DNA from: Eubacteriales bacterium
GTDB taxonomy: Bacteria > Bacillota > Clostridia > Oscillospirales > CAG-272
Reading direction: 5' to 3'
Length of the DNA stretch: 64,000 nt
Assembly (NCBI GenBank): GCA_045643945.1
Contig: JAZRGA010000052.1
Span: 15,311 to 79,310 of the forward strand
In this document: in pieces, positions 25,680-30,972 of the stretch
How positions within the stretch are numbered: the stretch's first letter is position 1
Layout: each line of letters opens with the position of its first letter
The notes under the pieces: generated by a model
Databases searched by the model: none
Seen by the model: the letters and a program-made list of their open reading frames with translations, nothing else
Told to the model about the DNA's origin: nothing
Translations under genes and position numbers: made by a program

Positions 25680-26237
25680 ATGAAAGCCACAGGAATTGTG
25701 AGAAGAATTGATGACCTCGGACGTGTAGTTATTCCTAAAGAAATAAGACGAACAATGCGTATCCGCGAGGGCGACCCGCTTGAAATATATACAAACAGAG
25801 AAGGCGAGGTTATTTTTAAAAAGTATTCGCCTATCGGAGAGATAAATTCATTTGCTTCTCAATACGCAGAAACTCTTTACCGCACCTGCAATTTGGAAAT
25901 TCTTATTTCTGACCGTGATGCTGTAATAGCGCTTGCAGGTGTTTCAAAAAAGGAATATATGGACAGAGCATTGAGTCACGAGCTTGAAAAAATTATGGAG
26001 GGAAGAAGCGTTTACCGTTATCGCGAGGGTGATGAATATATTTACCCGATAAACACTCCGACAGGACATTTTGTAAGCTGCGCTATGCCGATAATAACAG
26101 AGGGGGACGTTATCGGTTGCGTGGTAGCCCTTTCGCCCATTGGTAAGGAGCGGACTACCGATATGACTGTATACGATACCGAGGCAAAGCTTATAACGAC
26201 CGCCGCAATATTTTTAGGAAAGCAAATGGAATCTTAA
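25680..26237 (+). CDS. spoVT: Stage V sporulation protein T (AbrB-type N-terminal domain plus GAF-like C-terminal domain)
   Basis: MKATGIVRRIDDLGRVVIPKEIRRTMRIREGDPLEIY is the SpoVT/AbrB swapped-hairpin motif. The length of 185 aa fits SpoVT rather than AbrB. Confidence 0.85.
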   Translation: MKATGIVRRIDDLGRVVIPKEIRRTMRIREGDPLEIYTNREGEVIFKKYSPIGEINSFASQYAETLYRTCNLEILISDRDAVIALAGVSKKEYMDRALSHELEKIMEGRSVYRYREGDEYIYPINTPTGHFVSCAMPIITEGDVIGCVVALSPIGKERTTDMTVYDTEAKLITTAAIFLGKQMES

Positions 26238-26412: not shown

Positions 26413-26501
26413 GGAGAGATATCGAAGTGGTCATAACGGGGCTGACTCGAAATCAGTTTGTGCTAACGCACACGAGGGTTCGAATCCCTCTCTCTCCGCC
26501 A
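26413..26501 (+). tRNA. tRNA-Ser (anticodon CGA), class II with long variable arm, CCA encoded
   Basis: Acceptor GGAGAGA/TCTCTCC. Anticodon stem GCTGA/TCAGT with loop CTCGAAA. Variable arm GTGC-TAAC-GCAC. T-arm GAGGG-TTCGAAT-CCCTC. Discriminator G followed by CCA. Confidence 0.9.
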
Positions 26502-26505
26502 AGTG

Positions 26506-26549
26506 AAACCTAAATTGAACTTTACGTTTGATTTAGGTTTTTCTTTTTT
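26506..26549 (+). terminator. Rho-independent terminator after tRNA-Ser
   Basis: AAACCTAAAT (26506-26515) pairs with ATTTAGGTTT (26531-26540), followed by TTCTTTTTT. Confidence 0.65.
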
Positions 26550-26618
26550 ATCAAGCGAAGCGATATCGACTTGTATCAAGACAAGCACACGCCTTAGTAC
26601 CAAAAAATATCAAGCACC

Positions 26619-26647
26619 TTGACAGGTTTGCCTATATATGATATAAT
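26619..26647 (+). promoter_or_regulatory. Consensus SigA promoter of the five-gene cassette
   Basis: Perfect TTGACA (26619-26624), exactly 17 nt of spacer, then a perfect TATAAT (26642-26647). Confidence 0.6.
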
Positions 26648-26715
26648 TCTACCAGAAGTAGAATTACATTATTTTCATCATAAATCAAAAAAATTCCACA
26701 TCTACGAGATGTAGG
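26645..26715 (+). promoter_or_regulatory. Two CTAC-N5-GTAG inverted repeats (candidate operators)
   Basis: AATTCTAC-cagaa-GTAGAATT (26645-26665) overlaps the -10 box and transcription start. ATCTAC-gagat-GTAGG (26700-26715) lies ~53 bp downstream, just upstream of a possible second, extended -10 promoter (TGaTAGAAT, 26736-26744). Confidence 0.4.
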
Positions 26716-26777
26716 TTTACCTTTTTTCAAATTTGTGATAGAATTATATCAACAAAATACAGGAGGTTTTTATAGGA

Positions 26778-28691
26778 ATGTTAGATAAAAAACACAGCGT
26801 AGGAAAAACAATTGCTACACTCAGAAAAGCAAAAGGATTAACTCAAGTTGAACTTGCCGAGAAGCTCCAAGTCAGCGACAAGGCAATCAGCAAGTGGGAA
26901 AAGGATGATTCCTTTCCAAGCATAGAATTTTTCCCCGCACTTGCCGAATTATTTAATGTTAGTATTGATTATCTCATTACTGGCAAGGCTCCCGAAAAAG
27001 AAATTATTTTAATGTCAAAATTAGAATATTGTGCAAAGACGGATGATCCCTCTTTTTTAAGTAATATCAATTTAAAAGCTACAGATGAAAATGGAAAAAC
27101 AATCTTAAATTACGTAAAGCAGTATGAAAGTTATAATGTTTTTTCTGCAATTTGCGATAAGGACCCAGCTTTAATAAAGAAAATGGATTTTGAAACCGCA
27201 TTTAAGTTTTCGTTAATTGCAAACCGTATTGATATACTCAAAAAAGATATTATTTCGTGTTTAAATTTTCAAAGTTCAAATTTTATGCAACATGTATCAA
27301 AAGCAGGTATTAAAAATCTCTTTCATATTGAAGACAAATCGTACACTCGCTATATTCACGATAAAACATTATGTTGCATAAGTGATGATATGCTTGATAT
27401 AATAGTTACAAATACAAGAATTAACGATGACACAATGCAATATATATTATCAAAGCACGATATAATGACAAGCGTTTGGTATCAAATGTTCCCATATCTA
27501 ATTCATCAAAGTTATCTACATAACAATACCGAATTACTCAACAAAATATTAGAAATATCCATAGGCAACAATCAATATGCGTACGAAAAATATAAAGGAT
27601 ATTACGATACTGATTGTTTGCTACAGGGTGCGGGAAATCTGTTCGCATATTCTGATAGATATTTTGATGAGGGAAGACATGGGCTTGTTAGAATTTTAGA
27701 AAAAACTATAAAGTTAGCTCTTGTGAGAGGTGATTTTGAATTGGTAGAAAAATTCAATGAAATCAATTCAAATATAATGAATCACTATAGGCAAAGTAAA
27801 TGCTACATAGCTAATTCTGATGAAATTCGTGTTGCTAAACTTAAACAAGATAAAAACGTCAGCAACGATGAAATCGCTATACAGTCTGCAATCCATTACG
27901 GAATTATTTGCGTTGATGAATTATTGACTATTAACAATCTTGCACTTGTGAAAAAAACGTTAAATGAATATCCTATAACAATTATTGATTGGACATATAA
28001 TTTAATAAAATCTGACAATTGGAAACCTCTGTTCCAGTTTGCAGTAGATAATAAATTTAATCGCTTGGCTAATATTATATTGAATGCGAAGAAAGAAGAC
28101 GAAATATTTGAATTCCTCTGGTCAACAATTTACCAAACAAATTACTCACAACCCGATATGAGATGTGATATAAGATATCAGCTTTACTCATTAAATCAAA
28201 ATTATCTTAACACTAACAATAAGTATGGATCATATTTTCCTAATTGTATTCCGCATGCGAATTTTGATTCTGTGGTTAGTTATTTACAAAAGTGTAAAGA
28301 ACAAATTGTATTAACCTTAGAAAATCAATTTAATAAAAATAAGGCTATCAAGGATTTAACCAAAGATTATTTTGAAACCGAACTAAAAAAAGGCAATTTC
28401 AAAATTGTTATAATAGAGCTTTGCAAAAGACTGGAGGCTATTCTAAAATTCGATTATCACTATGAAGGTGATCTTTCTGATATGCTCAAACGCTATTGCG
28501 ATAAGCAATTAAAGTGGGAAGAAGACGATGGATGGGGGTATACATCATGGAGAAGGGACGAAAAGACGATAAAAGCACTTACATCATTGCGTCTCCAAAG
28601 AAACAATATTGCTCATCCCGATAAACGCATATCTAATATGAGCCTTGAAGAAATAGAATATTGCATTGATTATATTTGCAAAATGGGATAA
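26778..28691 (+). CDS. XRE-family HTH protein with a long alpha-helical repeat region and a C-terminal DUF4145/HEPN-like module (function unknown)
   Basis: AGGAGG RBS. Residues 7-68, KTIATLRKAKGLTQVELAEKLQVSDKAISKWEKDDSFPSIEFFPALAELFNVSIDYLITG, form a classic Cro/C1 HTH. The C-terminal ~95 aa read ...IIELCKRLEAILKF...TIKALTSLRLQRNNIAHPD...LEEIEYCIDYI, with the Rx4H motif at nt 28599-28616. The middle ~450 aa are helical with at least one ankyrin-like unit (TDENGKTILNYVKQYESYNVF). Confidence 0.6.
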   Translation: MLDKKHSVGKTIATLRKAKGLTQVELAEKLQVSDKAISKWEKDDSFPSIEFFPALAELFNVSIDYLITGKAPEKEIILMSKLEYCAKTDDPSFLSNINLKATDENGKTILNYVKQYESYNVFSAICDKDPALIKKMDFETAFKFSLIANRIDILKKDIISCLNFQSSNFMQHVSKAGIKNLFHIEDKSYTRYIHDKTLCCISDDMLDIIVTNTRINDDTMQYILSKHDIMTSVWYQMFPYLIHQSYLHNNTELLNKILEISIGNNQYAYEKYKGYYDTDCLLQGAGNLFAYSDRYFDEGRHGLVRILEKTIKLALVRGDFELVEKFNEINSNIMNHYRQSKCYIANSDEIRVAKLKQDKNVSNDEIAIQSAIHYGIICVDELLTINNLALVKKTLNEYPITIIDWTYNLIKSDNWKPLFQFAVDNKFNRLANIILNAKKEDEIFEFLWSTIYQTNYSQPDMRCDIRYQLYSLNQNYLNTNNKYGSYFPNCIPHANFDSVVSYLQKCKEQIVLTLENQFNKNKAIKDLTKDYFETELKKGNFKIVIIELCKRLEAILKFDYHYEGDLSDMLKRYCDKQLKWEEDDGWGYTSWRRDEKTIKALTSLRLQRNNIAHPDKRISNMSLEEIEYCIDYICKMG

Positions 28692-28702
28692 GGAGAGCGA
28701 TT

Positions 28703-29419
28703 ATGGATAAATACCAAGAATATATATTTAAAAATTCAAATAGTTATTACGGTTTATCTGTTTGCGGCAAATCTGATTTGGAAAAAGTCATTTTTGAAGA
28801 TAAAATCATATTTAAACAAAACGAAGATATAATGATAACTGATTATGTTTTTTATATAGCAAATATTGGAATTGAATCTGTTCTTTCAATCACAGACGGT
28901 AAAGAAACACCTCTAAAACAAGAGTCAGACCCCCAAAGAAGTCGCAAAAACAGATTCTTTTTACATGTTAGTTTTGATGACAAAATCGATGCTATTAAAA
29001 TTATTTTTAAAAATAATTTAGCGGACGATTTAACTTTTCCCGTTACATATGTGTATGCCGATAAAGAGAAATTTTATGCCAAAAGAGAAAAAGAGCGTAA
29101 AGAAAAATTAATAAAAAAAGCAAATATCAAAGTGACTACCGGCGCGGATTTGGTTAATATTTATTTTCAGCCTTGTTGTAATGATTATGCGCGAACTGAA
29201 ATTATTCTTTATAAAGATGATATGATGATTGCAAAATATAAAGTGAATGCAGAAAGTTTCTTTAAATCAATAAGCGGGTTGGCGTACGGCAAATACATGT
29301 TTACGTTAAAACAGCTTGATTCGAAGGAAAACATTCTTATTGAAACAGCGAAAAAAGCGTTTATTATTAGTGCTCCAGAAATTGATCCAGATGATTTTAT
29401 TCCTTATACAGTTATATGA
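28703..29419 (+). CDS. Hypothetical protein, predicted beta-rich, two-lobed with a KREKERKEKLIKK linker
   Basis: Start at ATG 28703, 7 nt after AAGGAGAG and 11 nt after the upstream stop. 238 aa. No family recognised. The stop overlaps the next start (ATGA at 29416-29419). Confidence 0.55.
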   Translation: MDKYQEYIFKNSNSYYGLSVCGKSDLEKVIFEDKIIFKQNEDIMITDYVFYIANIGIESVLSITDGKETPLKQESDPQRSRKNRFFLHVSFDDKIDAIKIIFKNNLADDLTFPVTYVYADKEKFYAKREKERKEKLIKKANIKVTTGADLVNIYFQPCCNDYARTEIILYKDDMMIAKYKVNAESFFKSISGLAYGKYMFTLKQLDSKENILIETAKKAFIISAPEIDPDDFIPYTVI

Positions 29420-29973
29420 ATAACAAATATTTAAAAGTACAATTTAATTCTGATATTGCAAAGGGCAACGATGATGTTCGTATTTCATTTTATGCAAATA
29501 TCGGATTTTTCATTGAAGTTGCACAAATGTTTGAATTTAATTTGCGTAAACTGATATGTTACGAAAGATCTGTTAAGGAAATAGAACAAGGCGAGATCAC
29601 CAAAGAAAATGTGGAACGTATATGCGCAAAGTACGATCAGTATTATGATGACACATATTTTAAAAAATCCAAATTCACTTTAGGAAAGCTTATCGGAGAA
29701 TCAAAAAGTGATTCCTCGATCCCGAAGGAGGTCTTCGATTTCCTTGATGAGTTGAATGATTTTAGAGTAAATCTTGTCCATAAGATTTTTCAAAACAATA
29801 TCATTAGACATTATTTTGATTCTGCAGAATTTGTCCTTGAATATACGAACAAACGAATTATCCCTATGACGGATAAAGCGATTGAAATTAATAAAGTTAT
29901 CATAGAAATAATTGATTTATATCGTAATGACTTGCATGACTATAAAAAGCAAGTTGGAATAAAAATCAACTAA
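29416..29973 (+). CDS. Hypothetical small helical protein with a DUF4145/HEPN-like Rx4H motif
   Basis: 185 aa. GFFIEVAQMFEFNLRKLI ... TLGKLIGESKSDSSIPKEVFDFLDELNDFRVNLVHKIF, with the Rx4H motif (R-VNLV-H) at nt 29764-29781. Translationally coupled to the preceding gene. Confidence 0.5.
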   Translation: MNNKYLKVQFNSDIAKGNDDVRISFYANIGFFIEVAQMFEFNLRKLICYERSVKEIEQGEITKENVERICAKYDQYYDDTYFKKSKFTLGKLIGESKSDSSIPKEVFDFLDELNDFRVNLVHKIFQNNIIRHYFDSAEFVLEYTNKRIIPMTDKAIEINKVIIEIIDLYRNDLHDYKKQVGIKIN

Positions 29974-30091
29974 TGATTTTCTTGATAATTTGATGGGTTA
30001 AACTATCCGATTTCAATACAATCGAGGCGGGAGAATCCAAGTTCAATTTATATACTTATATACTCAAAGAAGTGACAGGAGGTGACCGCTA

Positions 30092-30583
30092 TTGTTTTAT
30101 GTTTTGATGATTGTGATAGCGTTTTACAATCTTTTCTTATATACAATTTTTCGTAGCGGCATATATTCCTATTTTCGTTTATCAAAAATGAGCAAAACAT
30201 ACATTAAGAAAAACAGAAAAGGATTTATCAATTATTGGTTGTATTATTCAATCAATAAGCAGAACTCGCTTGGAGCTTTATACGGTTTAAATATTGCTTT
30301 CTTTATAGCCACGGTTACTTTCATGTTTTTTACGATTGCATTGGGATATATTAGGGTGATTCAGCCAATACTTTTTGTATTTTCTATCCTAGTTTGCATA
30401 ATAGAGATACCGTGTATGATTATTGCTTCAATTCACAGCTCCAACGAGGATTATGGAAAACCGTTTGTTTTTCTTGCAAAACGAAAGGGTTTCAGAGGAT
30501 ACACCAGCTCGCTGATTGAATGTCTATCTTGGATATTGACTGTTCTTTTGATTTATTTATCTTTTCAAATATTATTACGATGA
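30092..30583 (+). CDS. Hypothetical 4-TM membrane protein
   Basis: TTG start 9 nt after GGAGG (30078-30082). Hydrophobic segments MFYVLMIVIAFYNLFLYTIF, LNIAFFIATVTFMFFTIALGYI, ILFVFSILVCIIEIPCMIIASI, LIECLSWILTVLLIYLSF. Confidence 0.5.
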   Translation: MFYVLMIVIAFYNLFLYTIFRSGIYSYFRLSKMSKTYIKKNRKGFINYWLYYSINKQNSLGALYGLNIAFFIATVTFMFFTIALGYIRVIQPILFVFSILVCIIEIPCMIIASIHSSNEDYGKPFVFLAKRKGFRGYTSSLIECLSWILTVLLIYLSFQILLR

Positions 30584-30640
30584 TTTATCATTTTTTATCA
30601 AATATTTCGCAACACAACTATAAAAGTATTGAGAGGTTAT

Positions 30641-30916
30641 ATGTCACACAGTAAATTTGCAAAACGAGGAAAGTCGTTATACATTGAAAAATGGAATCCG
30701 TCCGCTAAAAGATTTATTAATACTTGCATCATTTGCGGAGCGCAAGGGTACAACCCGAGTATTGACGATGCGGGATTTGTTTATGATAATGAGCAAAAGA
30801 TTGCTAATTTTGAGCATCGAGCCATTCGGGATGAGCTTAAGCGCACTTTAAATCCATTATCATTAGATTCTTTGGGGCGTTGCGACAATTGCGCAAGGCT
30901 AATGGAAAAGGATTGA
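30641..30916 (+). CDS. Hypothetical small protein with a CxxC...CxxC (zinc-ribbon-like) pair
   Basis: MSHSKFAKRGKS... with CIICGAQGY and CDNCARLM about 50 residues apart. GAGAGG RBS. The track start at 30629 is rejected in favour of ATG 30641. Confidence 0.45.
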   Translation: MSHSKFAKRGKSLYIEKWNPSAKRFINTCIICGAQGYNPSIDDAGFVYDNEQKIANFEHRAIRDELKRTLNPLSLDSLGRCDNCARLMEKD

Positions 30917-30940
30917 TGTTTTTTTGATTTTAATAATTAA

Positions 30941-30972
30941 AGGGTGTTTCAAATGTTGATTTGATACACCCT
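30941..30972. terminator. Bidirectional hairpin closing the cassette (convergent with the spoVB-like gene)
   Basis: AGGGTGTTTCAAAT (30941-30954) pairs with ATTTGATACACCCT (30959-30972): 14 bp with one T-T mismatch and a GTTG loop. Confidence 0.55.

Follow-up and report, generated by a model that had tools for sequence, protein, structure and literature searches.

A conserved pair of HTH-HEPN and tandem Ig-like genes with an exchangeable HEPN-type third gene in an Eubacteriales genome

We analyzed a stretch of 64,000 nucleotides (nt) from an Eubacteriales bacterium of the CAG-272 lineage (Clostridia, Oscillospirales; assembly GCA_045643945.1, contig JAZRGA010000052.1, positions 15,311 to 79,310 of the forward strand), hereafter called the window. 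It carries three consecutive genes, whose products are referred to as A (the upstream protein of 637 amino acids (aa)), B (238 aa), and C (185 aa). An earlier reading made from the sequence alone, without database searches (the sequence-only reading), had described B and C as a dedicated, translationally coupled pair, had noticed that C repeats the layout of the HEPN-like C-terminus of A, and had raised a hetero-dimeric nuclease or a decoy/antitoxin arrangement of the two HEPN-like modules as possibilities. Comparison with homologous loci showed that A and B form the true conserved pair and that C is an exchangeable small HEPN-type gene, which is also found behind other phage-defense systems. 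Coordinates of all features are collected in Table 1.

Table 1. Features of the locus in window coordinates (HTH, helix-turn-helix; Ig, immunoglobulin; ORF, open reading frame; GC, guanine plus cytosine content)
Feature	Position	Strand	Remarks
Gene A, 637 aa	26778..28691	+	XRE-type HTH at aa 9-70, poorly conserved middle, C-terminal HEPN at ~aa 521-637
Gene B, 238 aa	28703..29419	+	tandem Ig/FN3-like beta-sandwiches linked by a basic helix
Gene C, 185 aa	29416..29973	+	stand-alone all-helical HEPN-like protein
ATGA stop/start overlap of B and C	29416..29419	+	
E40-FNL-R44, Ex3[KR] motif of C	29533..29547	+	in early helix VAQMFEFNLRKLI
R117-VNLV-H122, Rx4H motif of C	29764..29781	+	
R608-NNIA-H613, HEPN motif of A	28599..28616	+	
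Promoter P1: TTGACA, 17 nt, TG-TATAAT	26619..26647	+	12/12 consensus match; same -35/-10 pair in most homologous loci
Perfect palindrome AATTCTAC-CAGAA-GTAGAATT	26645..26665	+	overlaps both the -10 box and the start of transcription; probably the operator bound by the HTH of A
Box GTAGGTTTAC (26711-26720) in a second promoter-like site (TTTACC, 17 nt, TG-TAGAAT)	26711..26744	+	box overlaps the -35 element; -10 element of the extended type
tRNA-Ser(CGA)	26413..26501	+	ARAGORN; Rfam tRNA 54.3 bits; left edge of the low-GC island
Low-GC island with A, B, C, and two small unconserved ORFs	26500..30950	.	GC 0.29-0.33 versus 0.38-0.48 in the flanks

Gene layout and predicted products

Translation of B starts at an ATG five bases 3′ of the ribosome-binding site AAGGAGAG. 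A longer reading of B, started by TTG at 28676, was rejected, since all homologues begin with MDKYQ. The overlap of B and C by ATGA is present as the sequence-only reading had described it, and so are the early helix of C and its R-VNLV-H motif. No Shine-Dalgarno sequence precedes the start of C, which fits coupling by termination and reinitiation in the source genome. Both B and C are real conserved genes, with 477 and 187 homologues, respectively, in the database search, and all source names given for them were ‘hypothetical protein’. Neither protein had a credible match in Pfam, NCBIfam, PHROGs, or PADLOC; the best expectation values (E) were 0.011 for B (PADLOC PDC-S57), a match taken as noise, and 0.029 for C (a PHROG).

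The N-terminus of A matched HTH_3 with an E of 3.6e-14, and its C-terminus matched HEPN_RiboL-PSP (PF18735) with 21.6 bits and an E of 2.2e-4, which lies under the Pfam gathering cut-off of 28.4 bits. The same family was matched in 17 of 28 homologues of A at E up to 0.01 (best E 2.2e-6), with scores mostly below the cut-off. Besides the motif around R608, A carries an Ex3K motif (E-AIL-K, E553-x3-K557). Because E553, R608, N609, and H613 are invariant in the 28 homologues (26-51% identity), we place A in the HEPN superfamily. The HTH is the most conserved part of the whole system (70% mean pairwise identity), and the middle region of A reaches only 24%. Short forms of A (318-362 aa), in which the HTH is joined to the last ~260 residues and profile positions ~110-357 are missing, recur in the collection (loci L015, L031, L044, L081-L085, L090, and L091); they indicate that the variable middle region is dispensable.

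For B, the AlphaFold2 model had a predicted local distance difference test (pLDDT) score of 89.9 and comprised two seven-to-nine-stranded beta-sandwiches (residues 15-117 and 143-222). The two beta-rich lobes proposed from sequence were thus recovered, and the basic segment KREKERKEKLIKK that had been taken for their linker turned out to be a helix (residues 121-140) joining them. A Foldseek search of PDB gave 202 matches at E up to 1e-3, headed by tandem FN3/Ig receptor ectodomains (E ~1e-6); these matches are to be read at the level of a generic Ig-like fold and not as a family assignment, as there were no sequence family matches, in line with the sequence-only reading. No hydrophobic N-terminal signal sequence is visible, again as had been noticed before, which suggests that B is a cytoplasmic tandem-Ig protein. 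Conservation differs along its length: among 72 non-redundant homologues, mean pairwise identity was 29% for the N-lobe, 45% for the helix, and 53% for the C-lobe, which contains an almost invariant block (GADLVNIYFQPCC...GLAYGKY).

The arginine and histidine of the Rx4H motif are strictly conserved in C. In its close family (29 relatives, 54-84% identity), N114, R117, H122, E40, N42, and R44 are invariant. In a wide set that includes 26 relatives down to 17-27% identity, only Q37, R117, and H122 remain invariant; G30, E40, and G90 are each conserved in at least 90%, and most of the distant members show the classical R-N-x3-H form of the motif. The sequence-only reading had regarded variation of the arginine and histidine among homologues as a sign against a HEPN-like protein; no such variation was seen in the 29 close or the 26 distant relatives. 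The family is small: among 1.8 billion representative proteins scanned exhaustively with HMMER, only 59 clusters (50% clustering) were matched at E up to 1e-3. The AlphaFold2 model of C (pLDDT 89.6, predicted template modeling score 0.82) is all-helical and has five helices (19-58, 63-81, a short one at 89-97, 104-131, which bears R117 and H122, and 137-179). This layout fits the description of HEPN domains as two alpha-hairpins with an insert between helices 2 and 3, an Rx4-6H motif late in helix 3, and an upstream Ex3[KR] (Anantharaman et al. 2013, PMC3710099).

Remote members connect C to known HEPN families. The distant member P0290, found in the same scan by the C profile at an E of 1.3e-4, matched Pfam HepT-like with 25.1 bits, above the cut-off of 23.5 bits, and the match spans its RNILAH motif. 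Pfam matches of other distant members were to HepT-like (5), RiboL-PSP (4, best E 8e-4), DUF4145 (2, best E 2.8e-5), Apea, and Cthe2314, and weak PADLOC matches to CARF-HEPN, Csx1, and Cas13-ApeA models were also obtained. C itself did not match DUF4145 (PF13643), and only 2 of the 26 distant relatives did so, weakly. Judged by its invariant Rx4H, the upstream Ex3R, and these matches of remote members to HEPN-clan models, C most likely founds a new family within the HEPN superfamily, as the sequence-only reading had suspected at the level of a HEPN-like protein. It is a probable ribonuclease (RNase), probably homodimeric, with a predicted Ex3R...Rx4H active site. In four longer distant relatives (P0267, P0277, P0285, and P0292), the HEPN domain is C-terminal and follows long, low-complexity, apparently disordered N-terminal regions rich in Lys, Pro, and Glu.

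The resemblance between C and the C-terminus of A is of a qualitative kind. BLASTP of C versus A detected no similarity, and hhalign lined up the motif helices only weakly (21 columns centered on the motif, P 5e-4, 31% probability). The layout that had been noticed in both proteins, a helix followed by Rx4H, is indeed repeated, with an Ex3[KR] motif in each, and the statistical resemblance is thin. In a single 295-aa ORF (P0081; L114:576-1463), the N-terminal HTH of an A-like protein (~110 aa) is fused directly to a complete C-like HEPN domain. This ORF was seen in one sample, on a single 1.6-kb contig, and may have arisen by natural deletion or by chimeric assembly.

Linkage, co-divergence, and exchange of the third gene

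Gene linkage was examined from two sides. A B-centered scan (B profile, one genome per species) gave 47 loci, of which 41 could be evaluated for the presence of C. Nearly all of them are metagenome assemblies of gut Clostridia, for example Christensenellaceae, Candidatus Scatosoma, Coproplasma, and Eubacteriales. In those of the 47 species genomes whose locus extends ~2 kb or more ahead of B, ORF and hidden Markov model (HMM) analysis placed A directly upstream of B, except in two degenerate loci: one (L028) has a truncated B and no A, and the other (L045) has an A/B fusion ORF. Such a fusion, a single 394-aa ORF that matches positions 7-267 of the A profile and 30-231 of the B profile and is followed by an intact C, was found twice (L045:5335-6519 and L077:3789-4973) and probably represents a decayed or deleted cassette.

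A C-like gene followed B in only 12 of the 41 evaluable genomes. The third slot was otherwise occupied by diverse genes. Besides the 185-aa type, they encode (i) a 158-aa HEPN subtype that is ~20% identical to it and carries R-NYVI-H; (ii) a 179-aa HEPN subtype; (iii) a DUF4238 protein (E 2e-14); (iv) a 172-aa protein with a faint HEPN match; and (v) proteins that could not be annotated; in some loci the slot is empty. The DUF4238 protein (L043:6529-7338) was recognized by Pfam and had no match in PADLOC. DUF4238 is presumably listed as a single-gene defense candidate (Rst_DUF4238). In three further loci (L020:3665-4258, L035:6869-7441, and L055:2977-3927) the third-slot proteins contain FWDTE or FFDIE together with H-x4-D and by eye resemble DEDDh 3′-5′ exonucleases; searches of Pfam, PADLOC, and PDB sequences gave no support for this resemblance.

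The C-centered scan of metagenome contigs with the near C alignment gave 54 loci, a sample that was not de-replicated. Among the 48 evaluable ones, C lay after A-B in 32, before A-B in one, and in other contexts in 15. Outside the A-B cassette, C was found (i) directly after JetC-JetD of the Wadjet system; (ii) after a Dam methylase with DUF7226; (iii) after a stand-alone DUF7226 protein; (iv) after metK, an HNH gene, and a Sel1-like gene; (v) after a serine dehydratase; and (vi) between the PADLOC candidate PDC-M11A/B and AbiEii (L003 and L071). The notion of B and C as a dedicated pair that occurs together therefore did not hold: C does stand behind B outside this genome, in a minority of genomes only, and it frequently stands without A-B.

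Co-divergence was assessed as the Mantel correlation of pairwise identities over 33 non-redundant A-B-C loci. The correlation was 0.91 for A-B, 0.50 for B-C, and 0.46 for A-C. Clear exchanges of C were detected in both directions: in L001 and L013, the B proteins are 85% identical and the C proteins 20%, and in the window and L050, the B proteins are 34% identical and the C proteins 82%. The ATGA overlap was seen at 3 of 51 B-C junctions; the spacing ranged from -4 to +95 nt, with non-overlapping gaps of 0 to +95 nt. In three loci (L078, L108, and L110) C was split into two ORFs behind an intact A-B, which suggests that C decays independently of A-B. Taken together, linkage, co-divergence, and exchange identify A-B as the conserved pair and C as an accessory gene.

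These data bear on the hetero-dimeric nuclease, in which the C-terminal HEPN domain of A and C would share a composite active site. Such a partnership would agree with the presence of Ex3[KR] and Rx4H in both proteins, with their shared operon, with the position of about two-thirds of the close C homologues behind A-B, and with the fusion of the HTH of A to a C-like domain in P0081. However, ~70% of the A-B loci have no C-like gene, C occurs without A in nearly a third of its evaluable loci (15/48), and the same slot is filled by very different HEPN subtypes with ~20% mutual identity. Given also the weak A-C co-divergence, the exchanges, and the faint sequence resemblance, we consider the heterodimer unlikely. 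As an obligate arrangement it is disfavored in particular because C follows B in a minority of genomes, co-diverges weakly, and rarely overlaps B.

In another arrangement, B and C would form a toxin-antitoxin pair, in which the HEPN toxin C is counteracted by B, a protein antitoxin coupled to it in translation. A neutralizer is usually required for HEPN toxins, and the overlap in the window as well as the short B-C gaps in most loci with C would suit this assignment. It is nevertheless hard to reconcile with the distribution of the two genes, as B lacks C in most genomes, C lacks B in many loci, and in its other contexts C is preceded by a gene that has no relation to B (encoding JetD, DUF7226, a Sel1-like protein, or an HNH_5 protein). 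Since, moreover, B co-evolves with A and not with C, and the overlap is confined to a few loci, we regard a B-C toxin-antitoxin pair as improbable.

We likewise give little weight to the suggestion that C, as a decoy, regulator, or antitoxin, would cap the HEPN domain of A and keep this domain inactive. Two HEPN modules do lie in one operon, and inactive HEPN-like regulators are known in the superfamily (PMC3710099). Decoys usually lose their catalytic residues, whereas C keeps R117, H122, and Q37 invariant, and E40 is invariant in the close family and conserved in at least 90% of the wide set. Furthermore, most A-B cassettes have no C, and C travels independently of A.

A different alternative takes C as an autonomous single-gene element of the abortive-infection (Abi) type, which settles at the 3′ end of other operons and borrows their transcription without a functional link to A-B. 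At least five unrelated types of operon carry C at their 3′ end, C is exchanged among A-B lineages and has left pseudogenized copies behind intact A-B (L078, L108, and L110), and single-gene AbiD/F-like HEPN defenses such as PD-T4-5 exist (PMC9519451). Yet 32 of the 48 evaluable close homologues follow A-B, a proportion to be read with the lack of de-replication in mind, and the repeated occurrence of HEPN proteins of different subtypes in the third slot suggests some functional fit rather than random landing. Full autonomy of C is therefore a minor possibility in our view, and we retain the interpretation of C as an exchangeable accessory gene of the A-B cassette.

Island setting and regulatory DNA

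The three genes are situated in a low-GC island whose left edge is marked by a tRNA-Ser gene (Table 1). The genes that flank it in the window (spoVT and a flippase gene) are missing beside every other A-B locus, which points to horizontal movement of the cassette. Integration at the tRNA-Ser gene was considered and set aside: the 3′ end of this gene is not repeated elsewhere in the window, and the window contains no att-like repeat and no integrase. A prophage origin was also dropped, as C has zero copies in IMG/VR and B only two matches there.

Upstream of A, a consensus promoter is combined with conserved palindromic DNA. The motif AAyTCTAC-N5-GTAGArTT keeps its position and spacing in ~65 non-redundant loci, including those whose proteins are only 30-50% identical. 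The GTAGGTTTAC box lies ~53 nt downstream of the palindrome and is present in 47 of 65 loci. Accordingly, the half-site pattern GTAG[AG][ATG]TT reaches a density of 2.34 per 270 nt in the upstream regions versus 0.10 in the background. A structured leader RNA or riboswitch was rejected as an explanation, since RNAalifold predicted 0 conserved pairs upstream of A and Rfam gave no match there; for the same reasons the conservation is read as promoter and operator DNA. With conserved operator-like sites and an HTH of 70% mean identity, A would be expected to bind here and repress its own operon.

Several neighboring elements were recorded in addition. SpoVT (25680-26237), upstream of the tRNA-Ser gene, consists of an AbrB-type N-terminal domain and SpoVT_C (E 2.3e-36) and places the host among spore-forming Firmicutes. 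A hairpin resembling an intrinsic terminator lies just past the tRNA-Ser gene (26505-26541). Downstream of C, the low-GC stretch contains the two small unconserved ORFs. The first (30092-30583) encodes 163 aa with hydrophobic segments and has a good ribosome-binding site, and no terminator was found between it and C. The second (30629-30916) encodes a cysteine-rich product of 95 aa, whose sole homologue in the collected loci (L013, 8345-8632) follows the cassette at a distance of ~1.1 kb.

Proposed role and relation to known systems

With moderate confidence, we interpret B and C as the 3′ part of a HEPN-based conflict cassette of three genes, which was acquired horizontally and most likely works against phages as an abortive-infection or toxin-like module. 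A would act as both regulator and RNase effector: its XRE HTH probably binds the CTAC-N5-GTAG palindrome that covers the promoter and thereby represses the operon, and its AbiD/F-related (RiboL-PSP-like) C-terminal HEPN domain is a probable metal-independent RNase that would act as a dimer. B co-evolves with A, and its conserved C-lobe probably docks on A, with the fast-evolving N-lobe as a candidate recognition surface for a variable trigger, e.g. a phage protein. C would be a self-contained, probably homodimeric HEPN RNase in the exchangeable third slot behind B. In the window it is predicted to be co-transcribed and translationally coupled with B and hence to come under the control of A. 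In this scheme, C may best be described as a mobile add-on effector, and not as an obligate partner of B or of the HEPN domain of A.

A number of observations weigh against this interpretation. Concerning the assignment of C, the conserved acidic E40 sits in the first predicted helix (19-58) and not in helix 2, and a valine follows the motif arginine (R-V-N-L-V-H) instead of a polar N, D, or H; a polar residue at this position is typical, not obligatory. C has no direct Pfam match at E up to 1. The Foldseek search of the C model versus PDB and BFVD, which has low power on helical bundles, gave nothing significant (best E 0.2), so that the structural similarity to HEPN or DUF4145 proteins that the sequence-only reading had looked for was formally not found. 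AbiV and HepT appeared among these matches at ranks 44 and 50 only and were not used as support. Noise was also all that HMM searches of PDB sequences with the near and wide C profiles returned. As for function, the predicted A-B contact and the candidate sensing role of the N-lobe derive from patterns of conservation only, and no known-system model covers a defense role, as PADLOC matched only the HTH of A besides the weak match of B. The locus in the window lies outside any obvious defense island, between spoVT/tRNA-Ser and the flippase gene. Finally, the cassette is nearly absent from viral contigs, which neither supports nor excludes a role in defense.

Some of these points would suit the view that the locus is no conflict system at all, and that A is an ordinary transcription factor with B and C as accessory RNA-metabolism or housekeeping proteins of unassigned role. 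The cassette in the window indeed stands among housekeeping genes (spoVT, a sugar ABC transporter, and the flippase gene), and PADLOC has no model for it. Patchy distribution, variable genomic context, low GC, modular gene content, and frequent decay all argue against such a role, as do the fusion of a catalytic HEPN motif to the regulator and the position of C beside known or candidate defense genes elsewhere. We consider this view highly improbable; were it nevertheless correct, the locus would still show cleanly how the overlap of two genes in a single genome can give a false idea of which proteins are partners.

If the favored conflict-cassette interpretation holds and the cassette serves in defense, bacterial immunity would include an Ig-fold sensor, and the cassette would provide a natural example of effector swapping. 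A more specific version of this interpretation, which we put forward tentatively and regard as rather doubtful, is that A and B together make up a two-gene system of gut Clostridia against phages, so far without a description. In that version, the N-lobe of B would be the receptor for a phage protein, the C-lobe would release the RNase of the auto-repressing A, and the third slot would serve as a plug-in site for exchanged effectors (C, the two other HEPN subtypes, and DUF4238). Such a system would represent a modular ‘sensor plus swappable nuclease’ platform. The conserved operator and the invariant catalytic residues offer direct handles for DNA-binding assays and mutagenesis.

Among known systems, the nearest to C are the Abi-type HEPN proteins, small to medium-sized, mobile abortive-infection RNases with Rx4-6H that occur alone or at the edge of defense loci (PMC3710099, PMC9519451). 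C resembles AbiD/AbiF, PD-T4-5, AbiU2, AbiJ, and AbiV in its motif pair, its stand-alone architecture, its neighbors from defense islands, and its mobility. It matches none of their Pfam or PADLOC models and belongs to an independent family of ~59 clusters with no viral copies. A second comparison is with the HepT/MNT toxin-antitoxin systems (type II/VII), in which the toxin, a minimal HEPN RNase, has ~120-180 aa and an Rx4H motif; Pfam HepT-like is matched over the motif by distant relatives of C. However, no MNT nucleotidyltransferase gene adjoins C in the window or in the other contexts examined, and the upstream partner here is an Ig-like protein.

In the 2013 survey, the RiboL-PSP-HEPN family, to which the C-terminus of A is closest, is a distant relative of AbiF/AbiD. 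A shares with this branch the PF18735 matches in its homologues and the invariant RN..H and Ex3K motifs. It differs by its N-terminal XRE HTH and long helical middle region, and it has neither an L-PSP fusion nor a ParB neighbor. CapH-type and BrxR-type operons likewise have an XRE HTH at the 5′ end and a palindromic operator over the promoter, and in PADLOC-DB 2.0 only the HTH of A was matched (by the RmrA, capH, and HTH_VI models) and C not at all. Fusions of XRE domains to enzymes also occur in toxin-antitoxin systems of the defense type, e.g. PD-lambda-2B. Compared with other HTH-headed defense operons, the HTH of the present cassette is fused to the putative effector nuclease itself, which is paired with a tandem Ig-like protein. 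The literature searched contained no description of an architecture combining XRE-HTH-HEPN, tandem-Ig, and an exchangeable third gene, and no model in Pfam, NCBIfam, PHROGs, or PADLOC 2.0 describes B, C, or the complete architecture of A.

Single-gene HEPN Abi proteins are already well known as a kind, and so are HEPN nucleases joined to HTH regulators by fusion or linkage. New are two families without a database model, the minimal HEPN protein C and the cytoplasmic tandem-Ig protein B, together with an operon architecture that is mainly confined to uncultured gut Clostridia, e.g. Christensenellaceae and Candidatus Scatosoma.

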